In this document: piece after piece, positions 5,079-26,705 of the stretch
Position numbering within the stretch: position 1 is the first letter of the stretch
How the letters are laid out: each line of letters starts with the position of its first letter
Source of the DNA: a virus
Length of the DNA: 64,000 nt
Direction: 5' to 3' (one strand)
Virus record (IMG/VR): IMGVR_UViG_3300042486_001390
Coordinates: 1-64,000 of that record
The notes under the pieces: generated by a model
What the model was told of the DNA's origin: nothing
The model's input: the letters and a program-made list of their open reading frames with translations, nothing else
Database searches by the model: none
Translations under genes and position numbers: made by a program

Positions 5079-5118
5079 AGGTCAAGTCTTTGATTTTGTC
5101 AATATGTTTGATTTTAAG

Positions 5119-5167
5119 TGGGTTGGGCTGGATTTGCACTAGCGTGGAATTAAATCTACAGATTTAC
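5119..5167 (-). pseudogene. 3' half of a degenerate tRNA-Tyr(GTA)
   Basis: Minus strand GTAAATCTGTAGATTTAATTCCACGCTAGTGCAAATCCAGCCCAACCCA: begins at the GTA anticodon, has a long variable arm, a decayed T arm and an acceptor 3' strand; no 5' half upstream. Confidence 0.55.
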
Positions 5168-5177
5168 TATATTAGAT

Positions 5178-5492: not shown

Positions 5493-5683
5493 TTTTGACC
5501 TTTAATAGATTTTAAAGTTATTACTATGCTAGTTACACAAAAAAGCCAAACATACCAAAATTTAAAAAGCAATTCTGTTTCTGTTAAATGTAAATGAATG
5601 AATCTAATACCGAAAATTATACAAGTATTAAAACTCATGATAGCAATCAAAAGGTAATAGTTTATTTGTTTAGTCTTTTTCAT
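5489..5683 (-). CDS. Small protein with two predicted TM segments
   Basis: 64 aa with two hydrophobic stretches. Confidence 0.5.
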   Translation of the reverse strand: MKKTKQINYYLLIAIMSFNTCIIFGIRFIHLHLTETELLFKFWYVWLFCVTSIVITLKSIKGQK

Positions 5684-5737
5684 GTCTTATTAGTTTAATC
5701 TTTTTAGGTGTTCTATGTTACTTTACTACAATTAAAG

Positions 5738-5935
5738 TTATTTGTCTATAGTTTTGATAAGAAAATAAATTAAATTTACTTTTTCCGGTGTCAGTGTTTT
5801 GATTTTTATTAAGATTTTTACTAATTTATCCTTAAGTTCTTTTTTAGTGGGTTCTATGTTAGTTGGTTCATAGATGAAAGTTTTGGCACTCCCATCTTGT
5901 TCTATTTTAGTCAAAGTGTATTTTTCCATGATCAT
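5738..5935 (-). CDS. Hypothetical protein
   Basis: 65-aa ORF in a co-oriented cluster, with AGAAGG upstream. Confidence 0.5.
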   Translation of the reverse strand: MIMEKYTLTKIEQDGSAKTFIYEPTNIEPTKKELKDKLVKILIKIKTLTPEKVNLIYFLIKTIDK

Positions 5936-5958
5936 AGTGCCTTCTTTTATGTGTAGGT

Positions 5959-6414
5959 TTATCTTAATATATCTAGCCCTCGATTTCTGATTCTTTGAGC
6001 AAAGTCTTTATTAAATACTTTTGATTTTTTAATCACAGTAATCTGATTGCTTGGCCAGTATTCTAGCAGAAAATCAACGAGTTCTATTGAAGTTGTGTGT
6101 ATTCTAGCTTCTTTGCTGTATCCTTTTAGTAATTGGTAAAAAAGAAATAGTCCACTAAGCAGGTCTTTTTCAATTACCCAAAATACTAATCTAATTAATG
6201 TATTGCTAAGTCGCCAGTGTTTTAGAAGTTGGCATAGTTTTGTTTCCTCTAATTGCCAGTAACTGAAAAAATCCAAAACATTAGAGATTACTGGGTAGTC
6301 GCTTCTATTTACGAAGTCAGATACTAGAGCATCGATTGCTTCTAGAGATTGACACATCCCGATGGATGCAATCGATAATCCCTCTAATTTATATCCTGAG
6401 ATAATTTGTAGCAT
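5959..6414 (-). CDS. Hypothetical protein immediately downstream of the CRISPR array
   Basis: 151-aa ORF starting 64 nt after the last repeat. Confidence 0.6.
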   Translation of the reverse strand: MLQIISGYKLEGLSIASIGMCQSLEAIDALVSDFVNRSDYPVISNVLDFFSYWQLEETKLCQLLKHWRLSNTLIRLVFWVIEKDLLSGLFLFYQLLKGYSKEARIHTTSIELVDFLLEYWPSNQITVIKKSKVFNKDFAQRIRNRGLDILR

Positions 6415-6477
6415 GGTTTTAAAGTTTTGTTTTGTTTTCTTGCCTTAGTTTGCCTTGCCTTGTCTTGTATTTGTTTC

Positions 6478-6804
6478 CTTGCAATCTACTTAACAAGTCA
6501 AGCCGATTGTTACTATCCTTAAAGCCTCTATTGATTGCCATTAAGAAGCTCTTGCAATCTACTTAACAAGTCAAGCCGATTGTTACGGAATGACCGCAAT
6601 TATACGAAAAAGCGACTAAAGACTTCTTGCAATCTACTTAACAAGTCAAGCCGATTGTTACGTTACCGATTAGATTGTGGGGATTGTGGACGGTTCCCTT
6701 GCAATCTACTTAACAAGTCAAGCCGATTGTTACAAAACCCACCGATCCAGACACTTTAGCGGTTCTGGCTTGCAATCTACTTAACAAGTCAAGCCGATTG
6801 TTAC
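6478..6804 (-). CRISPR. CRISPR array: 5 identical 36-bp repeats and 4 spacers (35-39 bp)
   Basis: CTTGCAATCTACTTAACAAGTCAAGCCGATTGTTAC at 6478, 6551, 6626, 6698 and 6769; spacers of 37, 39, 36 and 35 bp; minus-strand repeat GTAAC...ATTGCAAG, co-oriented with the nuclease gene. Confidence 0.97.
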
Positions 6805-8486
6805 CCAGTCTCCCAGAGTGTAAGCTGCGTATAGCCTGCGTTGACTGTTTGCGCGGGTTGCGAGTGGATCGACCTTTTCCTTGTTTTTTTCTTGGGTGTC
6901 ACTGGCTCGGAGGTCAAAACCAGTAAGGTTTCGAGGGTTTCTTCGCCGAGTAACAATCGGCTGGACTTGTCAAGTAATTCCTCCTGCGCTGATTCCTTAT
7001 CGAAATCCTTCAGAGGCTTAACTTCCCCGGTACAAGCCGGGTAGCTTCTTACGAAGTCTGCTTTCCCTAAGATGTTGATTGCGGCGGCCACATCTCTGGG
7101 TAAAGTACATCCACACTCTAAACATTTATGGGTGCGGGTTGATAAACTTTTTTTAACACGATTGCCACAGCGAGGACAATCTTGACTGGTGTAAGCTGGT
7201 TGAACTTTGATAAACTCTCGGTTGGGAGCTTTCATTTTCGTTTCAAGAAAACCAGTTAATTGTCCTAAACTAGCATCAGCAAAGGATTTATTTAATCCCC
7301 CTTTGGCTTTCGCGTTATTGCGTTCGTAGCCTTTACCGTCTTCTCTTTTTTTCGGTTTAGGTCGTCGCATTAAATTCTTTAAGTTGAGGTCTTCTACGGC
7401 TACAGCGCCATGATTTCTAGCAATATCGGTACTTAGGGCATGATTAAATCCTTTGCGTTGTCTTGCTATTTTTTCGTGAGTTTTGGCAACTTTAGCACGA
7501 GTTTTAGCGAGATTTTTGCCGTCTTTATTTTCCCCTGCTTTATACTGTCTAGCGGTTTTTCTTTGCAGTCTTGCTAGTCTTTTTTGCTGTTTTCTATAGT
7601 ATTTGGGCGGGTCAATTTGTTGCCCGTCGCTGGTACTAATTATATATTCTAGTCCTACGTCAATACCGATTGCTTTATCAGAATCAGGTAGATCATTTAC
7701 TTCAAATTCACCAAATAGACTTAGATAATATCCCGATGGGTATTTGATAATTGATACGGTAGAGGCTTTTCTGTCACCCCACCGAATGTCTAAGGTATTG
7801 TTGATAATCTTTAAATCGCCTAATGTTTTACCACAGCTACCTATAGATATTTTATCCCCTTTTCTAACAGCGCAATCGCTGATCTCAGAATAAAGAGATT
7901 TAATTTTATCTTCTTTTCTTTTAAATCTAGGAAGTTTTCTGTCTAAATTCTTTTTATCAAGTTTGGTGTAAGCTTTCCAAGAATCAGCAAGCTTTTTTAA
8001 AACCCCTTTAACAAAAGCCATAGGGATGTCTTTGCATAGTTCTGGACATTTTTCTTTTGTAATACAGCCACATAACCCAAAATAATTATCAGATTTTAAC
8101 CGCCGTTGAATAGGGATATGAACAGGATAAGAGTAACCTGCTTTTTGTCTTTTTTCTCTAGCTATCTGTATTTTAACTTTTTGCTTGCCAGTTAAATATT
8201 TAGGGGTGTAAAGGGGATTAGGAAGGGATTTACCTTTTTCGTTTTTTAGGGAGTCAATAAATTGAGGTTTTTTAGCTAAACGACGTTTAACCCGTTTAAC
8301 TGGTTTTCCTGTTATTTGCTCAAGCTCGTCGTAATACTTATTAAGCTGATATTCCATCAGTAGATCTAACCCAAAATTCCAGACAGCTTTAATCTCGTCC
8401 ATCCAGCGATCAATATAGGTTCGCTGAGTAGCATTAAGGTTAAGCTTTATGTCCGCAATAGTTTTTTTGACTAGCATGGTTTTCAT
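6801..8486 (-). CDS. tnpB: TnpB/Cas12f-like RNA-guided RuvC nuclease (type V effector candidate)
   Basis: IS605 OrfB-like N-terminus (VWNFGL), RuvC-I IGIDVGL, RuvC-II AVEDLNL, zinc finger CPRC...CLEC, RuvC-III RDVAAAINI; abuts the CRISPR array. Confidence 0.9.
   Translation of the reverse strand: MKTMLVKKTIADIKLNLNATQRTYIDRWMDEIKAVWNFGLDLLMEYQLNKYYDELEQITGKPVKRVKRRLAKKPQFIDSLKNEKGKSLPNPLYTPKYLTGKQKVKIQIAREKRQKAGYSYPVHIPIQRRLKSDNYFGLCGCITKEKCPELCKDIPMAFVKGVLKKLADSWKAYTKLDKKNLDRKLPRFKRKEDKIKSLYSEISDCAVRKGDKISIGSCGKTLGDLKIINNTLDIRWGDRKASTVSIIKYPSGYYLSLFGEFEVNDLPDSDKAIGIDVGLEYIISTSDGQQIDPPKYYRKQQKRLARLQRKTARQYKAGENKDGKNLAKTRAKVAKTHEKIARQRKGFNHALSTDIARNHGAVAVEDLNLKNLMRRPKPKKREDGKGYERNNAKAKGGLNKSFADASLGQLTGFLETKMKAPNREFIKVQPAYTSQDCPRCGNRVKKSLSTRTHKCLECGCTLPRDVAAAINILGKADFVRSYPACTGEVKPLKDFDKESAQEELLDKSSRLLLGEETLETLLVLTSEPVTPKKKTRKRSIHSQPAQTVNAGYTQLTLWETG
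6950..6976 (-). ncRNA. Anti-repeat (putative tracrRNA core) inside the 3' end of the nuclease ORF
   Basis: Plus strand GTAACAATCGGCTGGACTTGTCAAGTA is 25/27 identical to the inverted repeat; the RNA duplex would have one mismatch and one G-U pair. Confidence 0.8.
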
Positions 8487-8511
8487 GGATCGACCTTCCT
8501 TTATTCTTACC

Positions 8512-8543
8512 TAAATCTACCATAAGCTTTATAGAAATGTCAA
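8512..8543 (-). promoter_or_regulatory. Sigma70-like promoter of the nuclease gene (copy 1 of a 32-bp duplication)
   Basis: Minus strand TTGACA-N18-TAGATT with an extended -10 TG; 30/32 identical to 9038-9069. Confidence 0.65.
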
Positions 8544-8552
8544 GTAAGAAGT

Positions 8553-8996
8553 CTAAAGATTTTTTGGGATACCAGTTCCCACATCAGAACCTATAGCCCA
8601 ACCCTTATAAAAGCTAAAGCCAGTAGTATCAATATGAAGGGGAAAACCTAACTCTTCCCAGCAGTATAATAGTCTTAGTACATCAACAGTCTGAACCGTA
8701 TAATTTAATCCTGTTTCAGTGACGATAAATTTTTCAAAAATCTCTGGGGCAACTAAAACAGAACAATAGTTAGTGTCGTCAAATTTACCAGACTTTTTAG
8801 CTAATTCAGAAGTAATTGCGATCAAAATCTTTTTTGTAAGTAATCTTTCTTGCGATATATTGCTATCTAAGTTAGTCCAAGCAATAAATCTAACAATATA
8901 ATCAAATTTTAATTCTGTTTGATCTTTGGCAATTTTTCCAGTTACTCCATAAACAGGAGCATTAAAATTTTGTTGCACTTCTGGAGAATTAGACAT
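8553..8996 (-). CDS. Hypothetical protein between the duplicated promoters
   Basis: 147-aa ORF flanked by the 32-bp direct repeat. Confidence 0.65.
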   Translation of the reverse strand: MSNSPEVQQNFNAPVYGVTGKIAKDQTELKFDYIVRFIAWTNLDSNISQERLLTKKILIAITSELAKKSGKFDDTNYCSVLVAPEIFEKFIVTETGLNYTVQTVDVLRLLYCWEELGFPLHIDTTGFSFYKGWAIGSDVGTGIPKNL

Positions 8997-9037
8997 AACT
9001 TGTAGTAAAAAAGATGCTAAACTATATTTGACTAATT

Positions 9038-9069
9038 TAAATCTACCATAAGCGTAATAGAAATGTCAA
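9038..9069 (-). promoter_or_regulatory. Sigma70-like promoter (copy 2 of the 32-bp duplication)
   Basis: TAAATCTACCATAAGCGTAATAGAAATGTCAA; its -35 box overlaps the ATG of the divergent RHH gene. Confidence 0.65.
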
Positions 9070-9212
9070 ACAATAAGCCTAAAAATTATTATCCTCTTAA
9101 CGTCCGTACTTCGCTACCTGAATATAAAAAACTAAAAACCTACTGTGATTCCCAGAAGCGGTCAATAACCGAGGTAGTTCGGGAATTAATTAGAAGTTTA
9201 CCCGATGACTGA
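9063..9212 (+). CDS. 49-aa ribbon-helix-helix (CopG-like) regulator, absent from the ORF track
   Basis: Manual translation MSNNKPKNYYPLNVRTSLPEYKKLKTYCDSQKRSITEVVRELIRSLPDD: beta-strand LNVR plus two helices; such RHH genes accompany cyanobacterial tnpB. Confidence 0.75.
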   Translation: MSNNKPKNYYPLNVRTSLPEYKKLKTYCDSQKRSITEVVRELIRSLPDD

Positions 9213-9426
9213 TACTCAAGGATGTTATTGGGATAGCTAGTGTTAAAAGTGCCAGTTCATAGACCGGCACTAAAGTTGCTTGCTCTTCATTCAGGTAGCA
9301 GTAACGCTCAGGACGACCGCCGCTAGAGCCTTCTAGGGGTTTCGACATTTGAAATGCGACAACTCCAAACTCTTGAATCTCGTTAAATAGTTGCCTGACG
9401 ATTCTAGTAAGAAGAAAGAAATAGTT

Positions 9427-9462
9427 AAAGAGAGAGGATTAAAATAATCCTCTCTCTTTTTT
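9427..9462. terminator. Intrinsic terminator hairpin
   Basis: AAAGAGAGAGGATT-AAAAT-AATCCTCTCTCTTTTTT. Confidence 0.75.
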
Positions 9463-9484
9463 AGTGTCCTATGCTGGCAGGCGT

Positions 9485-9745
9485 TGTTAGATTGTAATTA
9501 GATTGTAGATATTGTTATTAACAATAGAACCCTTGATATATATAGCTTCTAGACTTTGTTGATACTGTTGACACTATCCCCCGATATTATTTTTTTACGC
9601 TCTTACTGTTGAGGCTGTCTTTCCTTTTTACCCCATTTTCTTTTTTCCTCTATAAAGCATCAACGGCATCTACAAAGTCCAAAACCGTTACAGGGTAACG
9701 GTTTTGGTTGTAGATAGGGTTATTTACAATCTATCAACAATCCAA
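9485..9745. repeat. Two oppositely oriented copies of the composite palindromic element
   Basis: 26-bp cores at 9501-9526 and 9706-9731; palindrome CCAAAACCGTTAC-AGG-GTAACGGTTTTGG. Confidence 0.8.
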
Positions 9746-9764
9746 CTTCCCACGGTATGGGTTC

Positions 9765-10058: not shown

Positions 10059-10076
10059 CGGGGTTATCGTAATTTT

Positions 10077-10511
10077 CTATGATTTTACCACTCCTGAAGC
10101 AGGTACTCGATAAACCAGTACAGGCGGGTATTCATGAATATAGGTCTTCATCACGCCATTTATTGAGTCAGCATGAATATACTCCCCATCTCCTAAATAG
10201 ATGCCTACATGACCATCTACCCCTGACTTATGGAACATTAGAACATCACCTTTACACAGATCACCTTCAACCCTATCTAGTAAGCGATCAAGAAATTTGA
10301 CTAAGAAGTTATTCCGGGGAATCCGTTCGTAGTTTTCAATAATGAAATCATGGGGCAAGAATCCGACTTTAATCCCCACGCCAGCGATAAATCCTACACA
10401 ATCGGTTCCAATACCTTTGAGGGATTGACCATGAAACCAGGGAGTACCGAGCCATTCAAGAGCTTCGGTAACAATTTGATTACCCAAAGAATCGTTTTTT
10501 AGTTCGTTCAT
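10077..10511 (-). CDS. NlpC/P60 phage tail peptidase
   Basis: WLGTPW, GTDCVGF (catalytic Cys), HVGIY and IHA; follows the TMP. Confidence 0.9.
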   Translation of the reverse strand: MNELKNDSLGNQIVTEALEWLGTPWFHGQSLKGIGTDCVGFIAGVGIKVGFLPHDFIIENYERIPRNNFLVKFLDRLLDRVEGDLCKGDVLMFHKSGVDGHVGIYLGDGEYIHADSINGVMKTYIHEYPPVLVYRVPASGVVKS

Positions 10512-13500
10512 TTTGTGTATTTTCCCGTTCTTTTAATTGATTCAAACTATAACCCATATCATTCCGTGATTCTACAGTCACGTTATTGGTGTTATTAATT
10601 ACCAAAGACTGATTAGAGTTATTGTTATTTGAGGTTGTGGAGTAATTAGGCTTACCCCCGACAAATCCCCCATTAGCATAGTTCTTAATAGGAGCATTAT
10701 TTCTGTAGTCTAGATAAGCTTCTGTTTCTTTAGGGGTAAGAACCAATTCGCCTTCATTAGCTACGATTAATCGAGGTTTTCGGCCTCCCGACATTGCTCG
10801 TTCGCGCTGAAAAGCTGAAATGATATTTTTCTCTATCGGAGCATTGGCATCCCCAACTTTTCCACCATCACTAAATAGGCTGAATCCTGTACCTAGAGAA
10901 AAGGCAGAAGCCGGAGCAGAAGCAAAGCTAGAGGCTCCTATACTACCAAGTGACCCAATCGAACCAAGTCCGCCTAGTCCCCCACTAAAAATCCCTGTTA
11001 TTCCACTAAGTAGCCCGTTAAATAAGCCACCTCCGCCACCTCCCCCAAAAATAGAGGAAAAGATGTTACCTACTGGTTTAAAGATACTGTTTAGGGCATT
11101 AGTAAAGAAGTTGCCTACTGGCCCGATGATTGCATTAAATACTGACTCAAATGCCTGAGTTATTGGTTTAGTAAAACCATCGATAGCAGAAGTTAGGGCA
11201 TCGATAGCAGGCTTGGTAATACCCTCGACAAATTTAGTTGCAATATTTAAGCCAAGACTACTAAAAGCTGATCCTATTCCTTTTCCTTCTCTAATATCAG
11301 AGAAAAAGCTTTCAGCTGCGCCACGATTTGGAGAAGCGTCTAACTCCGCTCGTTCTAACCTTAATTCTGCAAGCTTTTCCCATTCTGATCGGATATTGGC
11401 CACATATTCAGCGTATTGTGGTAAGTCTTTGTAAGGTTCTAAATAATCCTCTAATTCCTCTTTTTCTTTTTGTAGGCTAATACGTTCAGCAAAGATAGCA
11501 GAATCATCAAATAAAGTCGGTCGAGACTGAAATTCTAGTTGCATTCTTTGGACAGTTAAATCATTTAACCGATCACGAATGCTCCTGACTGTATCTCTGG
11601 TTTTTCTAAATGATGCTTCTAAGGTAGCTACTCCCTGATTCTTGCCTAATTGTTCAATTGCTTGATCGAGAATTCTTACCCGTTCTTTAGCTAATTCAGC
11701 GTTTTTAGCTAAAACCTCGATACTATCTGTCATCTCTTTGACAAATTCAGGGGGAAGAGCTATACCTTTTTCTTGAAATTCTCCTAAGATTTCTTTTATT
11801 GCGTCGCTGTATTTTTTTTGAGCGTCAGCATTTAAAAGTAAAGTCCGTCGCTGGTCTTGCAAGGATTCAATTTGAGAGCGATATTGACGAGAAACTTCTG
11901 TGGCAGACTTATTAATTTCCTCTTGAACCGTTAAATAGCCTTTAGAATTTATTGTTAAATCGGTAACGCTTTCAGATGCGTCACGAATAGTTCTATTTAA
12001 GTTGCGAGCTTCTTCCTCTTGCTGCTGTCTAAATTTTATTGATCTGTCAAGAGCATTGTTTAGATTTTGTTGCTCTTCTAGTCGTCTTAAAAGCTCGTCA
12101 GCGTTTTGGTTGGCTGTTTCAGCGTTGCGAATTTGATCAGCGGCCGCATCAAGATTACCCGTAGGAAGATTAGGAACGGGCGGTAAATTAGGACTCTGGA
12201 AGTTAATCGGATTGTCTTTAGGAACCGGTGGTAAATCGGCATCCCAGAAGTTATCTTGATTTTGATTAGGTAAAGTTGGTAATTGGGCTATAGGTGGGGG
12301 ACTACTAAATTCTGGACCACCTTTTCCTTCTTTTGTTTCTTCTTTTGTTAAAACACGGGGAGGTTGTAAAACAGGAACAGAAGTGGGCAAGGGGACAGGA
12401 GAAGGGTTAGGTGTGGAGTCTTTAATGGATTGGCTAATTGCATTAGTAGCATTAGTTATTATTGTTCGATTATTTAGTTGATTGCCGTTAATGTTTGCAT
12501 AAGCAGTTACAATATATTCTTTCCCATTAATGTTTACCAGTCCAACGTTACCAATAACTTTAGAGTTATTTCCAATTTTTCCGCCGATTTCATTATTGTA
12601 CTTAAAATTTCTTGTTTGTCTCAGAGATTGTTCAGCTAATTGACTTGCAGGATCTTGATTTTTAATTAAAGACTGCATAGCTAACGTTACGTCTTGTGCT
12701 GTTGAAATGTTTGGAGTTCCACTGCCTGGTATATTTAAATACCTAGAAATAGTAGTGTTTTTATAACCTTCTTTTTTGGCTAATTCTGTAGCTCTGGTTA
12801 GCCCACCTAGCTGATCAATTAAAACATTAGTTGCCGTATTATCTGACTTTTCTAGCATTAATTGTATTAACTGTTCAACTGTTCTAACTTGATTGGCTTT
12901 TAATTGTCCGTGTGGATCAACCAAAGGCAATTTTATAGCGATAGCATCTTTTAAGGAAAGTTTTCCGCTTGTTATTTCTTTGGCAATCAAATCAGCAATA
13001 ATAACTTTAATTGTACTAGCTGGCGACGCTGGGGGTGTTTGAGCATTTTTAGAATATACAGTTTTTCCGCCAACTTCTTGAACTAAAACAGATTGAATAT
13101 TTTTTGGTAATCTGTTAGTGATTTGTTGCTGAACTGATGGAGAAGGGTTAGGGGTGGAAGTTGATGGAGTGGGTGAACCACCTTGATTTCTTCTGATTTG
13201 TCGAATACGGTTTGATGCTCCGCTGTTAGCAGGATTGCCGTCATATCGCAGTGCGTCTAGTTCGGATTGAGTACGAGGGGCATTTGGTTGGTATTTTCGT
13301 AAAGACTGATCGTAAACCTTTAACAGGTCTTCCATCCGTTTCATACCTTGCCCTGGGTAATTAGCCCCTGGGAAAGATGCCCATTCTGTGCGGGTTGCGT
13401 TAATTGCCCCAGGAATATCTCCCTTAAGAAGCTCGTCCAATCCACCTCTCATTAAAATACGGCTTAATGCGACTAAATCTTGAGAGAAAGAAGAAAAATC

Positions 13501-16500
13501 TTTTAATCCTAATTTCGCTTTTTCTTCATCCCATGTAAAATCCATGATCTGGTATCTTCCAGATGCCGATGAAGTGGTTGATCCAAACGGGATTCTTCGG
13601 CGTGGATGGTCTGCAAAAGAACTAAATTGTCCATGGCCAAAAAGGGTGTTATATCCTTGATTTGGCATCTTGGCAGTACCTTCTGCGTAAGCAATAACAT
13701 CAAGAAAGGCTTTGACGCGAGGATTGTTTAAATGCTGAGATAATTCTTGACCGCGTGGTGTTAATCCTTTGGGAATTGAAGACGACTGTGGCGGTGTCGG
13801 CGGTAAAAACCCTCCCCCATTCCACACAGGAGCAGGGGTGAAATTACTGGGAGCCGGTAATATTATTCCTTCCTTAGCTTTTCTAATTGCCTCAGCAGTT
13901 TCCTCTATACTTTTTACTAAGTCTTCTCCAGAAGTCTTGATATTTGGGGGAATAGCCACTAACTCAGAATTGATTAATTTAATTGGCTCTGGAAGTGTAT
14001 TAAGATTTGTGACAATATCCTTGATTGATTGGGGAATAAAGCCTAATTCTTTATTGGTTTGTCGGATTAAATCAGCTAGAGTACGATTGAGGTTTTCTTG
14101 AGTCCGTTTAATATCCTCAATCGTTCTCAGTCTATTTCTTTCAGCGTCTTGCTGTTGCTCTTGTAGATTACGGATATTTCTTAGAGTAGAGATATAGGAA
14201 GTTTCTATTTCCTCGGTTCGGGATTGGAAGGTGCGTCCGCGACTGGCAAGGTCAGCTTGTCCCTGGACAAATTCTAGGAAAATTTCACCTAATTCTTTAC
14301 CAGCGTCGCTTGTACCGGGTATCAATAACCGATTTTTAACTTGCTGTACCCTGATTCTATCAGTCGTATCTAGTAACTGATTTTGGGCATTCAAGAGGTT
14401 CTTATCGAGTTCCCTGACTAAATCACTGTAACTTTCAGATAGGGAACGATTCTCTTTAAATGCTGACAGTTGAGCGTCTTCAATCTGTCTTCTATAATCT
14501 TCAATCTGACGATTAAAGTCGATTATCTGACGGTCAAGGTTGCGGTAATAGTCTTGTATTTGTTCTTGCTGATCTCTTAAAGATAGTTCGGTTTCAGCTA
14601 TTTGCTGTGTGATATTTGCAATAGCTGTTTTTACTGCTAAAGGATCATCTACGTTTAATACTAATTTTTCTTGCTCTAAGGCTAATTGATTATAAAGAGC
14701 CGCTAAGTTTATCTTGGTTTGTTCCAGTCCGTAGCTAATATTTTGACTGGAGGAGGTTTTATTAGCTAGATTAGTGAGTTGTTCTGCTTTAACAATTTCT
14801 CCACTAGCTTGTTTTTCTTGTATTTGTCTTTTCTTTCTTTCGACAATAATCTCCCGACTAATTTGCTGAATTTCTCTCTCAGTGTTTAAAATATCTCGTC
14901 GAGCAGTTGCGTATTCTTTAGCCTGATTTAAAATAGCTCTTAAAGCGGCGTTGTCTTTTAGGTCAGATTCATACTGATCCATTATTTGCTGAATAGCATC
15001 AGGAGAGAGTAAATTTTCAGCAATTGCTTCACCAAAACTCGCTACATTTAGCTGTTTTAAGTCTTCTTTAAAGTAAGTGCTTAAAACTTTATTGGCAGAT
15101 TCAGATAGCCTTTCGTTTAAAATATTAGAGATAGAGTTAGCTGAATTGCCTAAAGTGGCAATACGCTCTTTAGCAGTCTGTAAGCTTTCTTCTTGAACTT
15201 CAACATTAAACTGAAATTCATTAATTTTCCCTGATGCAAATTGTTGATTTAATCCAATTGAACGACTTAAACTATTTCCTTCATTAGCAAAATTAGCATT
15301 AGCTCTTGTTCTTATAGCAAGATCAAAGGCAACTTGTAATTTTCTATATTCTTTTTCTTGGTCTTTCAAGACTTGTAGATAATCTTGTTCCGCTTTTTTT
15401 AGTTGACCAATTATAGTCAAGAGGTCTATTTTACGTTGTTTGTAAGCAATATCAGTTATATCTTTATTCTTAAAGCTTTGCTCTAACGATGCTAACGCTA
15501 TCTCATATTGTTGAAGGTCAGCAGTAATTCTTGACCCAACGGGACCTAACTGTTTATTAATTAGCTCCTGTTCTTGCTTCATTAAATCCTGCTCTCGCTG
15601 GTTAAATTCAGCTACAGATCGGTCGTTTCCTTTTGCGCTTGCAATTGTTCTTTCTGCTCTGACTAAAGCTAAATTATTTCTGATTTCTTGTAATTCAGAT
15701 GAAAATTGCTTGCTACCTGAAAAATTAGATAAAGTGTCTTGATATTCTTTGAGATTTCCGACTCCAGTAGCCAGAGATTTATCAATGTTTTCTAGTCCTT
15801 GTCGTAATTCTAATAGTGACATAAGCCATTTAGAATTATAAACAAGCCCTAGTGTTAGAACATTAAAAAACTTTTCTCCTCCAGACAATTCCATGTCAGG
15901 CAAAAAGCTTGTTAAACCTTTGCGATTACTGTTATCGGTTTTGTTTTGCCAAACATCAAGAGCTTTTTTAGACTCTTCTAGGGTTCTTACAGCTTGTTTT
16001 AGTTCTTCGCTACCAGCATTTAATGCGTTATAAACAAATTGAATACCAGTTATCACCGCAGTAGGGATAGCCAATGCTTTAATTAATCCTATTCCTGCTA
16101 AAGTAGCAAGGTTTATAGATACTTTTAGTTTACCCATGGCTGTAGCTGTAGATAGAGACGCTACTCCGGCAGCTTGTAAGGATGCACTCATAGCAGCACT
16201 GGCAACGGCTCCTAACCGACCAGCTGCCGCAAATTGCATGACTGATTTTCCTAAGAATCCCATGACTGACAGTAACCCTGCGGCTCCCACTGATGCCACC
16301 GTCCCTAGATTGTCATTTAAGGTACTTAAGCCGGCATTTAATGCCTGTAAAGCAGGGTAAGCGACTACTCCAATTTTTTCCCCTAACTGCATTTGAAGCT
16401 GTTCGGTATTGTTCTGGAATCGAGAGATTTCCGATTGTAAAGTTCCGGTAGAAAGAGAAAGACCTCCAGCACTCATCCGTTTATATTCAGCCGCTAATCG

Positions 16501-19500
16501 AGGTAAAACATCTTGTGCCAAGAGATTGCCTGCTGATGCTTGTTGATAAAATTGAGCAGTGGTCAGCCCTATTGATCGGGCGGCTACATTTAAAGCGTCG
16601 TTTAACCCTCCTGACTCGCTCAATTGCTGTGTGAATTCTTCAACGGAAACAACAGCTTTAGAGGCTATTTGCCCGATAGCTCTAAAAGATTCAGCTTGTT
16701 GTTGGGCATTGGTTTGTCGCGCTGCTAATGCCTCTTGGAATCCTTCAAAAATATTATCTGCCTGCGCTTGTAGTGGAGAATCAGTAGTAATTAATTTGAA
16801 TCTGCTATAAGCAATAGCGGATTCTTTAAAGGATATTCCTAATTTGTCAGCCCTTGCCACTAAAGCGTCAAGAGATTGTTCTACGTTGCCTACACCGGCA
16901 AGATTTAAATTTAATTTAATTCTTTGTAACTCAGTAAAGGCAAGTAAAGAATCAGTAACAGCTTGTTGAATCCTAAAAGGAATATCGTCAATAGCAAAAA
17001 ATAGAGGTCGTAATAAGAATTCTGCTCCTTTGAAAAGAGCAAATCCCCCAATCACCGCCATAGCACTTTTACCAAGACTAATCATACCTCCTGTAGCAGC
17101 ATTAAGTTCTTGGTCGAGAGTTCTGAGTGCTTTGCCGCCGACCGAGAGGAAATTAATAAATCCGTCCGCTTGGGCAATAACGGCTTTTAGTCCAGTTACG
17201 ATGCCGTCTGTAAAACCACTAGAAACGCCCGCTTTTTCAATACTATCGAGAGCGTTGAAAATGTTGTCTCGTTTTTTATTCCAGTCATCAAGAATTTCTT
17301 CTCGTGTTGATTGTTTTGGAAGTGCTTCGGAAAGAAGTTTTTTGCGTTGTTCTAATATTTGTTGCTGTTTTTCTAGTAATTGACGAGCTTTTTTAATATC
17401 CTCAAGATATTCTTTCGCCATTTCGCTTGCTGATTTTACCTGTTTATTTGGTTCAGGTTCGGGATCAGGTGAAGCAACAGGTCGGTTAATAGGAGGGTTA
17501 GGAGGCTGTCCACTACTACCGATATTTTCCCACGGATCAGGTGAAGCAACAGGTCGGTTAATAGGAGGGACAGGAGGCATTCCGCCGCTTGATGTTTGTG
17601 ATTGAACAGAAGATGTAATCTTGGGAGTCTTGAATGTTTTAACTTTTTCTTCTACTTTTTGTAATTGACTTTTGATATTTAATAATATCTGATCGTCAAT
17701 TTCGACCTGCTTCCTAGCTATAGCCTCGTAACTATTAAATATTGGTTTTGGCGGAATTGGTCTGACTATTTCATGTACATCCTTCCATGGATCAGGGATA
17801 GGAGACGGTGTATAAAGAGGAAGTTTTTTTTCAATAACGCTAAACTCAACATCTATAATGCGAGATAGATTAGTATTATTTGGCTGTTTTGGCTGTGGTA
17901 TATTTTCAATAATTGGAATAGCTTCTAAGGGTTTTTGTCGTTGACTTGCTTTTTTTAGCTTAGATGCAACTTTTCCAGTTATTCCAAGCAAACTCAATAA
18001 AGAAGCAACGGTTAACCCATAATTGCCTATAAATTCTAGCAGATCGTTAGTTAATGCTTTATCAGCAGATTCAACTTTTCTAGAAATATGTTTAACTGGT
18101 AGTATTTCGTTAGCTGTTAATTGAAGACTAATAGGCAGTTCTCTATCAGCAACAGCGTCAAAAACATTGCTTGTTGAAAGATTTTTTTCTTTTTCAACAG
18201 GAGGGGTAACTACACTAGAAGATTCTGATAGCTTCGCTTGGTTGCTTTCTATTTGAGGACGTTCAAAAAATCTTAATTGGTAAGGGGTAGATTTTCCAGT
18301 TCCTCCTAAAGATTGTGGTAGAATGCGACTTAATGACTTATCTGGCACTGTTAACCTTGCCATATTTCCATGATCGGGAAGCATAACAGCAGCAAATCCC
18401 ATAGAGCGAGTATATTTCTCTAACTGTTGTGGAGTCATATCTTTTTGACTTTCCATAACAGTTAAATTACCTTCTTTTGTTTTACCGAAAAATACTCTAG
18501 GACGAGGAATTTCATAAGCTAACTGCTGTTTTAACGAGCTATGATAGCCTCCTTTGTAATTAGCTGGCTGTTGAACTTCATCATTATATAAAACATGAAG
18601 ACCGCCGATAAAAGTATCGTAATTGGTTAATTTATTTGATTTAGCTCCGCCATAACCAAATTTTAAATTACCTTGTTTGTTAATACCGATAAAACCCCTT
18701 TCTTCTGCAGCCGCACGATTACGAGATAACTGCAAAACTTGTCCTCTCTGGACAACATCGGCAATCATGTTTACTTGCTGGTTTTTGTCTTGCAAGAAAA
18801 ATTTATCAAACATCGGACCAGAGCTATAAGCAATTGCCTGTTTATCTTGAAAAGCTTTTTTATCAACATCAACTTGCTTAACAACCTCTACCCCGGTTGT
18901 GGCAGGGTTCATCGTGACCCCCTTAAAGGATTCTGTCTGGATAAACTGCTGTGCATTGACAGGCATTCCACTAGAAGCTATAGCAAGAGTAGCTAACAGT
19001 CCTTTCGCGGCAGAATTAGATAATCCTTTTTGTAACTCTTTGACGACTTTAGTGGTTAGTTCTTTTATTTTATTAGTTAATTGATTTTCTTTTTTCTTAA
19101 TACCGTTTTCTACTCCTTTTATTAGGTTTTCCCCCGCTTCTTTGCCTTTCCAAGATGGTGAAGCATTCCCCAGTCCTTTATTTGTTGCGTCGATAATTCC
19201 AATTGCAACATCTAAAGCGTATTTTTCGCTATTATTATTTTGTAATCCAATATTTAACCCCTTAATATAATTTAACCCAGACTGTTTGCCATCACTGGAA
19301 AACATCGAACTAATCGCTTCAAGGTTTTTTGCGAATACTGGAACGCCAGCACTTAAAGAAGATGCAATAACTTCAATGAGTTTGCGTCCGTAAATATTGT
19401 ACTTTTCTTCTATATCGCCTAAATTAATGCCTAAAAAATCAGACGGATCAATTTTGCCAGTAGTTTGAACCTCAAGGTATTCAAGTATCTCATTAGGTCT

Positions 19501-22500
19501 GCGATTGTATTGGTCTGGTGTAAAGCTAGACAAAGGATTTGTTATTATCTCGCTTGGATTTCTCCAAAAAGCACCAGAGTCACCTCTAGTAAATGTTGAT
19601 CGGTTGGCAATTTTTGCTATATCGAGCATTATTTCAGCATCGCCATAGTAATCATTTCCTTTGATCGGTTCGGAAAAAGAGTTAATTGCGCTATAAGCAA
19701 CAGGTTCCTTGAAAACTTGTTTTTCAAAATCAAATCTGTCTCTTCTTAAACTCCATTGATTAAAAGTAGGGTCTATTCCTTGTGTTAAAATAGCTTGGAG
19801 ATTTGCAAAAGCTGTTTTATGTCCAGCGTAAAAATTAGATAATTGCTTAAGTCTAATACTAGCAGAAGCTAACGCATTTTCCGATGGCAAGCTTGATTCA
19901 ATTAATCGTGTAGGGGTAGGATAAGAAATAATATCATTTTTTGGGGGTTCAACAGGAGTAAAAGTTTTTGATAGAGGGAATTTGCTTAATTTTTTTTCTA
20001 GTAGCCCGTCAATTGGTTTACCTTCCCACCCCATCATTTTCGCTTCAACAGCTAAATCTTTTAAGTTAGGAATATTTACATCAAAATAAGATTGAATAAT
20101 TTTTTCAATATCGCCAAGTGATAAACCTGATTCAAATCCTTTAACAACTTCATTAGCTAAACTCCGAAAATCAAAAGAAGAAATTCCTTTTTCTATTCCA
20201 ATTGCCACACCTTTAATTAGGTTTTCTCCCGCTTCTTCCCCCTTCCAAGATGGTGAAGCATTTCCCAGCCCTTTATCAATTTGATCTACTATTTTAAGAG
20301 CGTTCTGGTAGGCGATGTCGCTTGCGCTAGTATCCTTTAATCCTTTTTCTAAACCTTCATTAAGGTTCTTACCTGACTCCAAACCACCTTTAGCTAATTG
20401 AGGTACAATCTGTTTTAATTTGTCGTAAACAGCATCAGTAGCAGCTTTTGCTGTCATACCTTGCTCTTTAACTAATGTAATTGCTTCATTAATAATGCTT
20501 GAAACTGGACTAGCTGTATTTTTAAGTTGATCAAAAACCCTTAATGCTTGTTCTGCTTGATCTGCAATTGCTTTATTTTCTTCTATGTTAATTTGATTAC
20601 CCGCAGTTTGTAGTTTTGCGGCTTTTTTATCAGAAGTTAAAGAGCCAAATACCTGTTTATCGGCTACTATACGATTTCTTAATGCAGACTGTACCTCAGC
20701 GCGAGTTAAAGTATCTGTTTGCTGTGTCGTGGATAATCCAAATAAATCAAATTGTTCTACAGTATCAACTGTACTAGCGTTCAACGTATCAATTAACTCT
20801 GAAACTACTGATTCGGTTACTTTCTTTCCTTTTTTCTCGAAATTTTCAATTAATTTAACTAACTCTCTTTGCTGAAATTCCTTAAGTCCACTGCCGCCAA
20901 TCTGAACACCCCTAAGTTCAGGTATATCTCCACTGGCGACACGATCAAACAACTCCTGTGGTAATTGAGCTAACGCAAGTCCTTGAGAAGCTACTCGATC
21001 TCGCATCGGTATGCCAGCTTTTTTAAGCGATTCTTTGTCAGCTAGATTCATGTCTCGCAAAAACTTGGCTGCATCTATAGCTGTACCGCGTCCTTCTGCA
21101 ATATTAATCATTGCCCCTTTAGCCCTAGCTTCTTGGGCTGACTGAGCATTTAACAATCGGACGGTAATATCTTTGACGTTTAAATCTTTGGCTAAATTAA
21201 GTCTATTATGTCCATTAACTACATAAACTTTCCCGTCTTTAGGATCGCGCCAAACACTGACAACTCCCGCTAAATCATCATCCCATCTACCAACACCAGA
21301 TAAAGAACCAGTCGATCCAGTTTTGCCGTGTACAAGTTTATACTGGAATCGTTCTGGATCAAGATTTAAGTCTGAGATCGGAAGTTTTCCTACCCAGCCA
21401 GGGGAAGTCGGGCTATTTTCTTGAGGAACCCTTTTTAACGGATTCGGAGTTTCAGTAACGCGTAAAGGAATATTCTCAGTCTGTAGATTGCTTGTAGATG
21501 CAGGTAAAAGAATATTCTTGGATTGTATCTGACTTTTGGCATTAAGTAACAGATTGTCAATTAAGGTTACAAAGCCGATTAAAGATTTATTAATACTTGT
21601 CGTATCAAATTCAGGGTTAGCTCTTATTGATGCAATACCCGTTTTAATTTTTTCTAATTGAGAGAAAAGGGTCTTTAAAGATTGAATATCTTTATTAGTA
21701 TTAATTTGTTGGGTGATGCTTTGTATGCCACTGCCAATTGTTTTAATAAAATCAGCGGAAATTTTTCTTGTTTCAACTTGGAATCCACTAAGTTCTTTTT
21801 TCCCTAATTTTGTTCTATCACTTGCTTTTGTTGTTAGTAAAAGTCGAGTTAGTTGGTCAGGGTTAAATTTTTCAGTTAACGATTTCCATATTTCCTCTTT
21901 TCTGGCTCCTGCTCCTGATGCTGGTACGTCAATTCCTTGATCCCTGGCCAACCCTCGTAATTGTTTTACCGTGTAATATTCTGGGTTAATTGCCTTGATG
22001 TTAGCTGGAATAGGGTTGCTTGCTGGGAAGACCCTCTCATCGAAATATGGAGTTATTTCAGTGGTAATCAGAGAATCAGCTTTATTCTTTGCCGCTTTTA
22101 ATACTTTCTGGGTTTTACCCTCAATTTTTTGCTGTTCTTCTTTGCTAATTAATTTAGGGACATTACTGGTAGCCGCTCCCAAGAGCTTCTTAACACCTTC
22201 ACCGGCCATTAACGCCGATCCAGCAACTGCTCCCCCCTGCGATAGGACGCTGATAGTGCCGTTAGTTATTTCGGTTACAAGCTGCACTACTGCTTCCGTT
22301 AGCTGTTGCCCCACTCCAAACGGCAAGCCGCTAAAAGCTTGAGTCATTTGTGTGGCTACAGATTGGATCATTTCCCGACCGCCGGCACTCATCGCCCCTG
22401 CAAGAATATCTCGCATAGTATTGACAACCGTGGCATCTAGCCCCATCGGGAGAGCGTGGAGAGCGGCCGCACCCATAGCAGCCGTTCCCCCTACCTGAAT

Positions 22501-25500
22501 AGCTTTTTTACCTATTGCAGCACCAGGTAAAGCCATTACTGGACGCTCTAAAGCTTGCATTACCGCATAAACGACTTGACCAAATTTAACAACGTCAAGA
22601 GATGTGTCTCGGAAAGCTTTTGAAAGTAGAAGGCTTGCTGTTTTTAATTCTCTTACAAGAGTTAATTGTAGTAATTCTGCAAAATCTTCATTCCCGCTAA
22701 GGTACTGAATTTCTCCCGATTTATCAGGAGTACCAAGTCGTGAAGCTAAAACATCTTCTAATTTTGATTTAGCTGCTACAGCTAAATCATTAAGTTTTTG
22801 TGGTTGATTATCTAGAATTGGTTGTTCTTTTTTTTGTTCGGGAGTATCTATTTTTGCGAAAACAGTTTCTTTAGTAGGCAAAGAAAAATCACTAACGATT
22901 TGCTTTAATAAAGTTGGTGTATATGAACCTAATGGAATTGCTTCTCCTGTTACTACAGGAGAAAGAAGAGTCTCGTTAATTTCTCTTTTCTGAGGGATAA
23001 TGGCTGATTTTTGTCTGGCATTAGAATCAGAAACTTGAGTAGCAAAAGGTTTTGAGTAGCCAGATTGAATTGCGCCTATTATTTTAAGAGGATCCATCAA
23101 TCCGTAATAGTTAGAATCAATGATTGCTCGCTGAATAGTAGTAATTCTATCGTTAAATTTATCACTGCTAGTCGGATCAACTTTTGCATTTCCGAGATCA
23201 ATTGAAGTAATTCCACCTCGTGCAAAAAATACATTTGCTGCAGCTAAATCATTATGAACAACACCCATTTCCTGTAAAGATGCTCCAAGTTGTCCTACTT
23301 GTCGATATAGAATAGATGCAGCTTTATTAAAACGATTGTGTTCTTTTTTAGCAGATGATTGTAATTCTTTGGTTAATACTTTTAGCTCTTCGATTTTAGT
23401 CGCATCTTTGTTGTCTATAGCTAACTCTAATGCTTTATTAGCTTCCTGTATTTTTTGCTGAATTTCTTTGTAAGGACGTGCAATTCGATCAAGTATTTCT
23501 TTTAAAGGACGACCTTGTGTTCTTTCAGTAATTAAAGCCTGACCTGGAACTGCTTTGTACAATAAAGGAGACAAACGACCTTGTAATTTCTCATAAGCCT
23601 TAATTTCATTTTCTGACGCAATTTTTGTCGCTCCTATTGGGTCAAGATCAGTTTTATAAACAAGATTATCTGAAAGAAGAGCAACGGCTCCAAGAAATCC
23701 TGTACCAATTTTTTTGATTTCAGAAATACCAGGAAGAATTTCTTTACCTACGGCATCAAGAAGTTTGTTGTAAGCTAAAATAGCTGATTGCTTTTTTAGA
23801 AAAATTTCAGGAACAGCAACCTGTAATTGTCTTATTTCTTCTTCTTTTGGTAGTGTTGATGTGTCAAGGCGTGTATTTAGAAAACTTGTTAATTCTCCAG
23901 AAAACTCATCAACTTCAAAAGTTTTTATACTGTCTTTGGTTTTTTGCGATAGTTTTCCTCCTGTCTTAATAAATTCATCAGCAACATCAGCTATTTTTTT
24001 GTATGCTTCAACAATTTTTTTTGTGTAAGTTTGCCCAAACGTACTTTCTTCAGAAGTAAACCACGGTATTGTTTCGGTTCTAATCTTTTCTGTCCGTCTT
24101 TTAACTTCGTTAGGCTCTAAATTTCCGGCATACCAGCTAGGAATATTAGCAAGTTTTCCTGATTTAAATTCTAATAATGCGCTGTTTATACTTTTTGCTT
24201 CTTGTTGATACTTTTGATACCCAGCAAAATCTTGAGGATTTTCTGGTAAATTTGCACCCCCTTGTCTAAATTTTTCAGCTATAAATGGAACTAAAGGTTC
24301 CATTAAACTTTTTAAAGCTTGTGACACAGGCTGTAATTCTTTTGTATCAAAAGAAGATATAAGACGAAGCCCTTCGAAAAACTTTGCAATAAATCCTTCT
24401 ACGCTTACGTTAGGACTGCCACTGCTGTATCCTTGCAAGAATCTATGATAAGGTAGAGTCTTATCAAATTCCCCTGTTTCTTTAAGTGACTTTAATTGTA
24501 GAGTCGATCCCAATACTTCATATAGCTTATCGCCTGCATGAACAACTTTTGATTGTTGACCTGGGGTTATATCTGGCTGTTCAGCATTAATAGTCTTATA
24601 AAATAAATCTAGAAAAGGTTGTTTTTTAAATAAATGTTTTTGGTGGTGATTTGATAGCCCAAAAGGAGTATCACTTTCAATTGAGTGGAATTGGTTAGTA
24701 TTGACTCCAATTCCTAATAACTTGGCAAACCCGAGAGGGTCTCCACTTAGCAACGCTGCATTAAATCCTTTAGGTGTATTTTGAGTAAAATTAAGAAAGG
24801 GATAAGCCATGGCTAATGCGCGTGGCTGCATTCCCAAATATGCTGCTGTTTGACTATACTGAAGGTTATCTGCTCCTCCTAAAGAATAGCTAACAACGCT
24901 GCCTTTTTTACCCTGTTCTTCAGCTAATCTGGTATTGGCTATTGCTTGCGCTGCGGCTGTAGAATAACCAAACGGGTTAATAGCGTTTACTACCTGCCGA
25001 AAAGCGTTAATTGCTGTATCTATGGTTTCTCCAGCAGCAAAATCAGGGGCAATCTCAGCTATTTTATCCCTAATCATTTTTTCTAAAAGATTAGGGTTTT
25101 GTTTATCAGTATCAGTTTCAGGATTTTCTACAGGAATAAATCGTTTATTAGGAGCTAATAATTCAATTGATTGAGTAACTTGTCTGCCACCCTGACCTCC
25201 CTTAAATTGCGCTCCTCCAATGACACTAACTACATCTTCCCCCTCTCTTAGTAATGGAAAACCTGCTTTTCTTTCGTTGTAATATTTTTGGCTTTCTACT
25301 GATGTTCTATAAGACCTCATCCCTTGTATAAATTTTAATAAAGGAGCCATTTCTTGAATAAAAGAATTAACAAATCCTTTTAATACTTGTGTTTGTGGCT
25401 GTGCGTCAACTAAAAACTGAGCTATGGCTTTTTTCCCCGCTTCTCGCGGCTTGATACCAGGATTTTCCGATTCTATTTTTTGTAATACTTGTTGATAAAT

Positions 25501-26343: not shown

Positions 26344-26705
26344 TAGCTTTTCTCCCCTACTAATTGAATTATTTCGTCGTATAGTCCGCAATCGACTATT
26401 ATCTGAGTGGCGAAGACTGGCACTTGGCCAGCTTGCATAGCTTTTAACAGAATTTGAGCGGTTTCTTGATCAAGAAAATATTTTTTATTTTCTTTAAACC
26501 GGAAAGGAAGAAAATCACTGGGTTTTGGAGGTTGAGACTGTGATTTTTCTTTTGATTGAGCCATTAAGTAAATGTTAACCATGGCGGCAATCTGACTGAC
26601 TGTGTCTGATAGTGAATTAATCTCTTCACATTTGACTTTTTGAATCCCTGAATATTTTTTCAGGATTAACCAGTCTGGCCACTCTTCCCACTCTTCGATA
26701 GGCAA
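26343..26705 (-). CDS. Tail assembly chaperone, frameshift-extended part (lambda gpT-like)
   Basis: Frame stays open upstream to about 26803, across an A-AAA-AAC slippery site at the end of the upstream gene. Confidence 0.75.
   Translation of the reverse strand: MPIEEWEEWPDWLILKKYSGIQKVKCEEINSLSDTVSQIAAMVNIYLMAQSKEKSQSQPPKPSDFLPFRFKENKKYFLDQETAQILLKAMQAGQVPVFATQIIVDCGLYDEIIQLVGEKS

Follow-up and report, generated by a model that had tools for sequence, protein, structure and literature searches.

For TnpB nucleases it is a known rule that the guide-RNA gene overlaps the nuclease gene's 3' end, and from Cas12n it is likewise known that a tracrRNA (trans-activating CRISPR RNA) can be located within the region encoding the tail of the effector. 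Here, we analyze a locus of this kind in a freshwater phage, using as the window the first 64 kb of the IMG/VR virus record IMGVR_UViG_3300042486_001390 (90,564 nt, rated complete by CheckV), in which the gene for a TnpB-like effector of type V-U2 (C2c8) runs without interruption into a CRISPR array. Our reading, to which we assign a probability of roughly 0.7, is that positions 6805-7070 of this phage-borne V-U2 module are read both as an RNA scaffold and as a protein tail under selection. V-U2 is among the last of the originally defined type V-U groups lacking a described guide RNA, no characterization of one having been found in the searched literature. The group is now provided with a direction, a covarying scaffold and a rule for a scaffold-repeat pseudoknot, together with an anti-repeat for this phage clade, and these four are the requirements for reconstituting V-U2.

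In the omega-RNA (or reRNA) of IS200/IS605 elements such as ISDra2, the C-terminal coding region overlaps the scaffold and the nucleotides preceding the guide are engaged in a pseudoknot with an upstream segment. In ISDra2, positions -103 to -105 form the partner of positions -5 to -3 ahead of the guide, an arrangement stated to be common to Cas12 guide RNAs (PMC10097598; this and the other sources cited by identifier are represented by excerpts, to which the statements taken from them are limited). The phage locus differs from TnpB in that no match to a Y1 transposase (tnpA) was found in the phage record, in that five repeats and four different spacers replace the single guide, and in that a 27-nt anti-repeat splits the RNA into a tracrRNA part and a CRISPR RNA (crRNA) part. 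Cas12n (type V-N, formerly V-U4 or C2c9) is, like the phage effector, a miniature TnpB-derived protein with the tracrRNA inside the coding region of its C-terminal tail, and its guide shares with that of Cas12f a layout of stem-loops, a repeat:anti-repeat stem and pre-guide bases (bioRxiv 10.64898/2026.03.27.714800). In those excerpts, the tail of Cas12n is reported as lacking structure and being dispensable, whereas the phage tail is under purifying selection and carries a conserved end motif. The two effectors also belong to different families, the C2c8 model passing its cut-off here, and the present element is phage-borne, with an open reading frame (ORF) that runs into repeat 1. TranC (Jin et al. 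2025), compared here through the papers that cite it, similarly combines a TnpB-like nuclease with an array and splits the omega-RNA into tracrRNA and crRNA (PMC13565253; bioRxiv 10.64898/2026.03.27.714800). For those of its clades that have a long C-terminal domain, the tracrRNA is said in the excerpts of the latter source to lie outside that region.

A phage-borne C2c8 effector has also been described in cyanophage vB_AphaS-CL131 (MG209611; hereafter CL131). It is 38% identical to the present one and is accompanied by an array of 36-nt repeats and by no other cas genes; its authors found no tracrRNA and considered the array direction elusive, according to the excerpts of their paper (PMC6293099). 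A 2024 review lists V-U2 without a protospacer-adjacent motif (PAM) or a size.

Judged from its sequence, the effector analyzed here is of type V-U2 (C2c8). It scores 366.9 bits over aa 12-446 against the curated NCBIfam model V_cas_c2c8 (NF038192), whose cut-off is 350. Its RuvC residues D276, E365 and D465 and its zinc-finger residues C437, C440, C455 and C458 show no variation among 27 aligned homologs, an array adjoins the gene, and adaptation genes are missing, with no match to Cas1 or Cas2 in the 90.5-kb record. TnpB family models of NCBIfam also match the effector, and the Pfam domains OrfB_IS605 and Cas12f1-like_TNB were detected in it. The C2c9 family is not among its six NCBIfam matches, in a library where the presence of such a model is unconfirmed. 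Rfam returned nothing but two chance-level matches in the region 5000-10500, and a DNA search of the phage collection gave no match to the locus, nor to the 14-spacer array of the array locus L007. Relatives were sought through genome contigs, where a single-protein query retrieved none and a query with the alignment A2 retrieved nine loci, four of them useful.

The array had been described from the letters alone as made of identical repeats with distinct spacers of 35-39 nt, adjoining the gene without intergenic space, and both statements were confirmed. An exact-copy search recovered five identical 36-nt repeats separated by spacers of 35, 36, 39 and 37 nt (counted from the gene side), with no further exact copy of the repeat elsewhere in the 90,564-nt record. 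The stop codon of the effector is contained in repeat 1, of which it forms bases 2-4, and the gene-to-array distance is zero. The same arrangement, in which the ORF reaches its stop only inside repeat 1, was observed in the sister-phage locus L032 and, out of six distant relatives with arrays, in five (L078, L079, L043, L045 and L118).

The predicted guide RNA

Three hairpins (A, B and C; Table 1) are located 5' of the anti-repeat within the ORF, starting about 10 codons past the RuvC-III motif, and the same three hairpins, built from other stem sequences, occupy the same place in relatives of 39-57% protein identity. A covariance model with a seed of ten loci (R1) was run on 51 sources and located this scaffold 27 times at the 3' end of C2c8-type genes; at least 12 of the loci concerned were not part of the seed. 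Standard pairs fill 94.4% of the 462 cells in the R1 alignment, vs 67.4% after shuffling, and compensatory changes on both sides were found for 19 of the 20 scaffold pairs. The covariation score amounted to 0.613 vs 0.160 in shuffles (none of 500 reached it) and dropped to 0.05-0.13 when the 3' partners were slid by one to three columns. The overlap of tail and tracrRNA, which the original prediction had derived from the anti-repeat, is supported by these covarying hairpins and extended by them, as it is by the pseudoknot described next.

In all nine array-bearing lineages examined, the hairpin B loop opens with four nucleotides complementary to the four that end the repeat next to the spacer: CUUG with CAAG in this phage, L045, L079 and CL131; CUUU with AAAG in L043, L078 and L061; CUUC with GAAG in L118; and GUUU with AAAC in L136 and L063. 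When the repeat ends were permuted 200,000 times, 79 of the permutations attained such a match. In the phage under study, the loop pairing can be extended to six pairs, joining CUUGUA with UGCAAG at the repeat 3' end, and loop B and the repeat end are predicted to form a pseudoknot of the same topology as in TnpB omega-RNA and in Cas12f guides.

These features also bear on the strand that is transcribed. An inverted repeat can pair on either strand, a single weak promoter-like site is present on the plus strand (6490-6519), and the direction of the CL131 array was left open by its authors, at least in the excerpted text (PMC6293099), all of which would be compatible with plus-strand transcription of an array and a tracrRNA in antisense orientation to the gene tail. 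We regard this as highly improbable. G.U pairs, found in 47 of the 462 scaffold cells, would become A.C on the opposite strand and thus indicate an RNA read on the gene strand, where alone the partner of the pseudoknot is the spacer-adjacent repeat end. Moreover, the repeat ends fit the ...ATTGAAAG/C orientation of the relatives, the phage repeat 3' end GATTGCAAG agreeing with the G(A/G)TTGNAAG end of their repeats, and the guides of TnpB-type systems lie 3' of the scaffold (PMC10097598, in excerpt). On the gene strand, the best promoter-like site was directly upstream of the ORF; no sigma-70-like site was detected on the minus strand within 6805-7070 and no terminator-like site between the gene and the array. 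This combination favors one transcript comprising the gene, the scaffold and the array, for which the site at 8514-8543 is a possible single promoter.

The anti-repeat was recovered where it had been predicted, at 6950-6976, coding for LLDKSSRLL and 145 nt from repeat 1. The two 27-nt arms (6778-6804 and 6950-6976) show 93% complementarity, and the anti-repeat is joined to bases 1-27 of the repeat by 25 Watson-Crick pairs and one G.U pair, with a single C.U mismatch, the same arm fitting all five repeats. Using RNAduplex on the whole tail RNA and the repeat, an energy of -43.0 kcal/mol was obtained, compared with -19.3 +/- 2.8 for 200 shuffled repeats, none of which was as good (z -8.55). The RNA-folding check that had been suggested gave the expected structure: in the minimum-free-energy fold of 7075-6734 the anti-repeat pairs with repeat 1 (z -3.33, with 0 of 100 shuffles as good), and the duplex in cis reaches 6981-6946, four pairs past the repeat start, with repeat 1 only. 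A natural single-guide fold in cis is thereby predicted. Across the 20 unique genes of the clade, the anti-repeat changes only by 6971 G>A and 6970 A>G, which interconvert G.U and A-U and keep the pairing, and the changes 6948 C>T and 6805 G>A likewise leave the four-pair cis extension paired.

An alternative reading of this duplex, very unlikely in our view, is that the anti-repeat would not be part of a tracrRNA and would instead pair with repeat 1 as a cis-regulatory hairpin, such as an attenuator or RNase III site controlling the expression of effector or array, or represent a relic of the duplication from which the array arose. The four additional base pairs peculiar to repeat 1 would suit such a hairpin, and so would the relatives, which keep arrays without an anti-repeat and show a short local hairpin at its position. 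Against it stand the equal pairing of the anti-repeat with all five repeats, the clade changes that keep this pairing and a layout that fits the Cas12f and Cas12n guides in the published excerpts, with three stem-loops, a repeat:anti-repeat stem, a few bases and the guide.

In the tracrRNA reading, which we prefer, the gene-strand RNA from about 7061 to 6946 would act as a tracrRNA-like scaffold, with three hairpins followed by the 27-nt anti-repeat. The anti-repeat would pair with bases 1-27 of each repeat and loop B with the last 4-6 nt before the spacer, which would serve as the 3' guide. Pairing would take place in cis for repeat 1, giving a natural single guide with a 145-nt loop, and in trans for repeats 2-5. 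By analogy with TnpB and Cas12n, these RNAs would most likely be cut from the effector mRNA or from a read-through transcript, and we infer that cleavage by the effector would require the scaffold. Cofolding of 7075-6940 with repeat 2 and its spacer resulted in the three hairpins and the repeat:anti-repeat duplex, and the guide predicted by this modeling comprises three stem-loops, a long repeat:anti-repeat stem, nine bases (4-6 of them in the pseudoknot) and the spacer. The same stretch, together with the next 50 codons, would provide the C-terminal tail of the protein, composed of a linker, a basic patch and the terminal QLTLW.

Table 1. Coordinates of the features at the effector and array locus (positions in the window)
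Feature	Positions	Strand	Basis
Best promoter-like site, TTGACA-18-TAGATT, second hexamer preceded by TG	8514..8543	-	Consensus match only; directly upstream of the ORF
Effector gene, type V-U2 (C2c8) by sequence, TnpB-like	6801..8486	-	561 aa; NCBIfam, Pfam, invariant residues
RuvC-III motif RDVAAAINI, aa 464-472, last catalytic motif, after which the tail begins	7071..7097	-	Alignment, coordinate mapping
Hairpin A, within codons 476-482	7043..7061	-	Helix 1: 94.3% paired; both-side changes in 4 of 4 pairs
Hairpin B, CCCGG...CCGGG, loop CUUGUA at 7036-7031	7026..7041	-	Helix 2: 95.7% paired; 4 of 5 pairs compensatory
Hairpin C, outer and inner stem	6980..7016	-	Helices 3 and 4: 96.8% and 91.0% paired; 11 of 11 pairs compensatory
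Anti-repeat, 27 nt, coding LLDKSSRLL (6977-6951)	6950..6976	-	Complementarity, RNAduplex
Mid-tail coding stretch, basic patch PKKKTRKR at about 6896-6873	6828..6949	-	pN/pS 0.06
QLTLW codons, aa 554-558, putative beta-clamp-binding motif, 3 residues from the C-terminus	6813..6827	-	Homolog conservation
Stop codon TAA, bases 2-4 of repeat 1	6801..6803	-	ORF and repeat coordinates
CRISPR array, 5 identical 36-nt repeats and 4 spacers, repeat then spacer on the gene strand	6478..6804	-	Exact copies
Repeats 1-5	6804-6769, 6733-6698, 6661-6626, 6586-6551, 6513-6478	-	Exact 36-nt copies

Additional R1 matches were observed away from the 3' end of C2c8 genes, at 2490-2629 of L118 (plus strand, 63.7 bits) and at 1751-1854 of L119 (minus strand, 52.3 bits), the former inside the gene at a tail-like protein insertion (...ELTPVESHKSETLKQEPEKSG...). 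A further match of 39.7 bits was located at 3440-3588 of L049, a metagenome-assembled genome of Clostridiales, at the 3' end of a TnpB that is 30% identical to the phage effector. By this match, the scaffold, or the coding homology underlying it, appears to reach past the cyanobacteria.

The C-terminal tail as a protein

After RuvC-III, the effector continues for 89 codons (473-561), a figure that corrects the approximately 80 of the original prediction, and the tail reads ...EELLDKSSRLLLGEE... Its supposed low complexity was not borne out, as motifs are conserved in relatives and purifying selection was detected. Four parts can be distinguished: an ADF..SY[PR]....[GR].VKP segment, whose conservation is at least partly attributable to hairpins A-C, a variable linker, a K/R patch and a terminal QLxLW, QLxLxLW or QLxLF. 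Selection was estimated on 27 full-length genes of the clade, 20 of them unique, with the tail taken as codons 474-561, the mid-tail as codons 513-550 and the body as codons 2-465. The ratio pN/pS was 0.16 in the body, 0.27 in the tail and 0.06 in the mid-tail, and the selection check that had been proposed for the tail therefore points to purifying selection. The synonymous component (pS) was 0.0468 in the body, 0.0115 in the hairpins, nil in the nine anti-repeat codons and 0.0375 in the mid-tail. The mid-tail lies outside the covarying scaffold, and the part constrained by the RNA (codons 476-512) and that constrained by the protein (codons 513-561) are largely arranged side by side, as in ISDra2.

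The C-terminal motif provides further evidence for the peptide. Within the last 45 aa it was present in 72 of 121 homologs, in 71 of them at 0-12 residues from the end, compared with 0.019 occurrences per 45 aa elsewhere. Its Gln and Leu codons vary synonymously between loci (CAA/CAG and TTG/CTT/CTA/CTG, respectively), which indicates selection on the peptide. In addition, the tail frame is open for 62-145 codons in 11 diverged loci, and the other two frames contain 46 and 88 stops per 1,122 codons; the count of zero in the coding frame holds by construction, the evidence being how far the open stretch extends. Going by these sequence comparisons, the tail is conserved and selected as a protein.

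We weighed these results against the rather unlikely explanation that the RNA alone matters, in which case the open frame of the tail would be a by-product of a G+C-rich structured RNA and the peptide would be functionless. The base composition is in line with it, since the G+C content shifts sharply from 36.9% in 7098-8486 to 50.5% in 6805-7097, as are the two precedents, the Cas12n tail being reported as unstructured, dispensable and tracrRNA-bearing (bioRxiv 10.64898/2026.03.27.714800) and the C-terminal domain of ISDra2 as disordered and not needed for cleavage (PMC10097598), both in excerpts, and as is the interruption of the CL131 tail by a TGA codon. A functionless peptide is at odds with the mid-tail, where pN/pS is 0.06 at a pS near that of the body and no covarying scaffold is involved, with the preservation of QLxLW through synonymous changes and with frames that remain open over such lengths while about 6% of the codons in the other two are stops. 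With the protein and the RNA both under constraint, as we prefer to read the locus, the overlapped protein would be selected here, whereas the overlapped tail is dispensable in the precedents of Cas12n and ISDra2.

We take QLTLW to be a docking peptide, most likely for the beta sliding clamp of the host. The C-terminal clamp motif of transposases has the consensus Q-L-x-L-F and follows a variable linker at the very end of the protein (PMC4549789), and for Cyanobacteria the OrfB of IS200/IS605 was noted to carry a putative motif C-terminally (Gomez et al. 2014; PMC3971601), as far as the excerpts of these papers go. The phage motif shares with these the leading Gln, the hydrophobic residues at positions 2, 4 and 5 and the C-terminal location after a variable linker; it differs in usually ending with Trp rather than Phe, and many relatives bear a heptad, QLELDLW. 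A literature search for a link between clamp-binding motifs and TnpB or Cas12 returned only an unrelated review and transposase papers, and DNA_pol3_beta_3, the C-terminal domain of DnaN, had no match in the phage record.

Several observations weigh against the double use of 6805-7070 or narrow its scope. On the RNA side, the register of hairpin A differs among relatives and is not consistently alignable (no claim made here rests on hairpin A alone), covariation was scored on an alignment fitted to the R1 structure, and the R1 signal is partly coding homology. No significant anti-repeat was detected in L078, L079, L043, L045 and L118 (z -0.7 to -2.5), all of which have arrays, and none was found in CL131 (z +0.28), where the R1 match is also weak (16.9 bits). 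The long anti-repeat, and with it the tracrRNA mode of pairing, is consequently specific to this phage clade. Of the covariation check suggested for homologs, the part concerning the three hairpins stood across the family, and the part concerning anti-repeat and repeat is not checkable between families, for want of an anti-repeat in the relatives. On the protein side, the selection estimates derive from few changes, with 13 variable codon columns in the 88-codon tail. In CL131 (L181, 2905-3162), an in-frame TGA and a change of frame end the gene 255 nt before the array. The TGA of this annotated "transposase" sits where a Dolichospermum homolog has Arg, and directly before repeat 1 part of the tail (...KRKNAKKQ...HTQLTLW) can still be read in a different frame, the tail thus being broken as a protein but preserved as DNA. 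At least one lineage can therefore do without the protein tail. The ORF also ends 113 nt before the array in L080 and 145-818 nt before it in the four more distant C2c8 loci L060-L063. Finally, the tail and repeat 1 were found contiguous in four of four freshwater metatranscriptome libraries from four studies (6769-7211, 6776-7193, 6705-7028 and 6775-7047), in contigs that report presence only, with no ends, strand or level, and that may include carried-over DNA. Their uncovered parts and differing ends (7211, 7193, 7028 and 7047) are uninformative, and parts of the gene cannot be ranked by them. The loose end at 7028 in library X3 was rejected as an RNA end because the sequence there is adapter-like, a library artifact.

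A separate observation concerns L032 (IMGVR_UViG_3300042382_000533, 3001-4685), the effector of a more distant sister phage with 93% identity in its N-terminal part. It was recovered as two overlapping tblastn pieces, with only 185 codons open before repeat 1, and from the sequence the break is a frameshift or an assembly error.

Origin, turnover and targets of the array

The tail and scaffold are also present in arrayless relatives, namely L117 and L119 (viral contigs of 103 and 108 kb), L044 and L046. In these four, the gene ends in QLxLF/W, a few codons and a stop, followed by a single repeat-like end that matches the loop B of the same locus (GAYTGGAAY in L117 and L119, and similar in L044 and L046), an ending likewise comparable to TnpB omega-RNA, and one that looks like an omega-RNA with one guide. 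In the array loci, the same end constitutes the repeat 3' end, and the last codons of the ORF form the 5' part of the repeat, for example ...GEISSNTS* in L043. The repeat appears to go back to the 3' terminus of an ancestral omega-RNA with which the ORF overlapped at its end. The birth of arrays through duplication of the omega-RNA 3' end has been proposed in general terms (PMC10691335, in excerpt), and a duplication of this segment would explain the stop codon within repeat 1. The family, with its arrayless single-guide forms and its array forms bearing a stop in the repeat, would thus retain a trace of a CRISPR repeat arising from the omega-RNA 3' end.

The turnover of the arrays was assessed in 36 array loci from near-identical phages, whose effectors are 97-99% identical. 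These harbor 22 distinct arrays of 3-15 repeats with 94 distinct spacers, a diversity that implies fast turnover. Among the 13 pairs of arrays that share a spacer, unshared spacers were gene-proximal in nine and distal in 11, and the arrays are mosaics without polarity. Of 21 arrays, two begin with a variant repeat and four end with one, and seven different flanks were found downstream of the arrays. Recombination between arrays accounts for these mosaics at least as well as polarized acquisition does.

This distribution bears on the leader that the original prediction had assigned to the coding stretch upstream of repeat 1, with spacers recently acquired in trans through host Cas1-Cas2. Such a function of 6805-6949, with spacers inserted beside repeat 1, would be compatible with the double use of the tail, and we view it as a doubtful addition to it. 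The region upstream of repeat 1 consists of coding DNA only, in which the mid-tail stretch 6828-6949 is the sole location available to a leader, the phage record is devoid of cas1 and cas2 matches, and the spacers are as diverse as described among phages with such similar effectors. In the six phage records compared, a perfect present-day target was found for one spacer only, and this spacer (L021 spacer 1, below) is on the gene side of its array, the variant repeat is more often the last than the first, and the Q codon of the motif is at 23-30 nt from repeat 1 in six loci. Against a leader, the two checks proposed for it yielded nothing in its favor. Spacer gain between strains had no preferred end, as the counts above indicate, and the comparison with host arrays found no copy of the phage repeat (up to three mismatches) in a sample of 401 cyanobacterial genomes, which is no proof of its absence. 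The seven downstream flanks point to recombination, the synonymous diversity of the mid-tail is not lowered relative to the body, no promoter-like site on the gene strand accompanies it, and V-U systems are generally without adaptation genes (PMC10691335, in excerpt). A leader within the tail is thus a logical deduction from the layout, and its role is possible but unsupported.

As to what the arrays target, the gene-proximal spacer 1 of L021 is identical to window positions 25247-25283 (37 of 37 nt), inside an ORF of 5,303 aa (10480..26391). The same target site is present in the sister phage G693; a 131-nt probe of it had no match in G692, G694 and G695, and in G696 it matched only the L021 array spacer itself. 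On the spacer strand, the 5' flank of the protospacer reads ...GCCAAAAAT and ends in AAAAAT. This perfect match indicates that the arrays are directed, at least in part, against sister phages and, at the level of sequence matches, suggests phage-against-phage targeting. When 93 spacers were compared with six phage records, 36 matches outside arrays were obtained, of which only two, both of spacer sp048, were full-length. The others were rejected as targets, with 10-20 mismatches over the full spacer. A 16-nt core of three hot-spot spacers was also pursued and occurs in 14 viral stretches, and the seven of these outside arrays match over 16-19 nt, as expected by chance. A PAM is not derivable from one real protospacer and a few flanks inferred from overlapping spacers, which are mutually discordant.

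Taking the terminal motif and the targeting spacer together, we tentatively suggest, as a possibility on the less probable side, that QLxLW/F might tether V-U2 effectors and the ancestral cyanobacterial TnpB to the host beta clamp and so focus cutting on replicating DNA, such as the forks of rival phages. The module would then serve in warfare between phages, and some 260 nt would have three selected readings, as scaffold, as clamp-docking tail and as entry site of the array. Should the tail dock on the sliding clamp, RNA-guided nucleases would be linked to replication.

Regarding the composition of the spacers, several groups in the arrays of L007-L042 correspond to the same target site in diverged versions and with shifted starts (spacers 00/20/58, 01/06, 18/32, 59/74, 05/76 and 04/54), and spacers 14 and 78 correspond to the same site on opposite strands. 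The sequence GCGATCGC, which we take to be the cyanobacterial HIP1 palindrome, is present in several spacers of these arrays.

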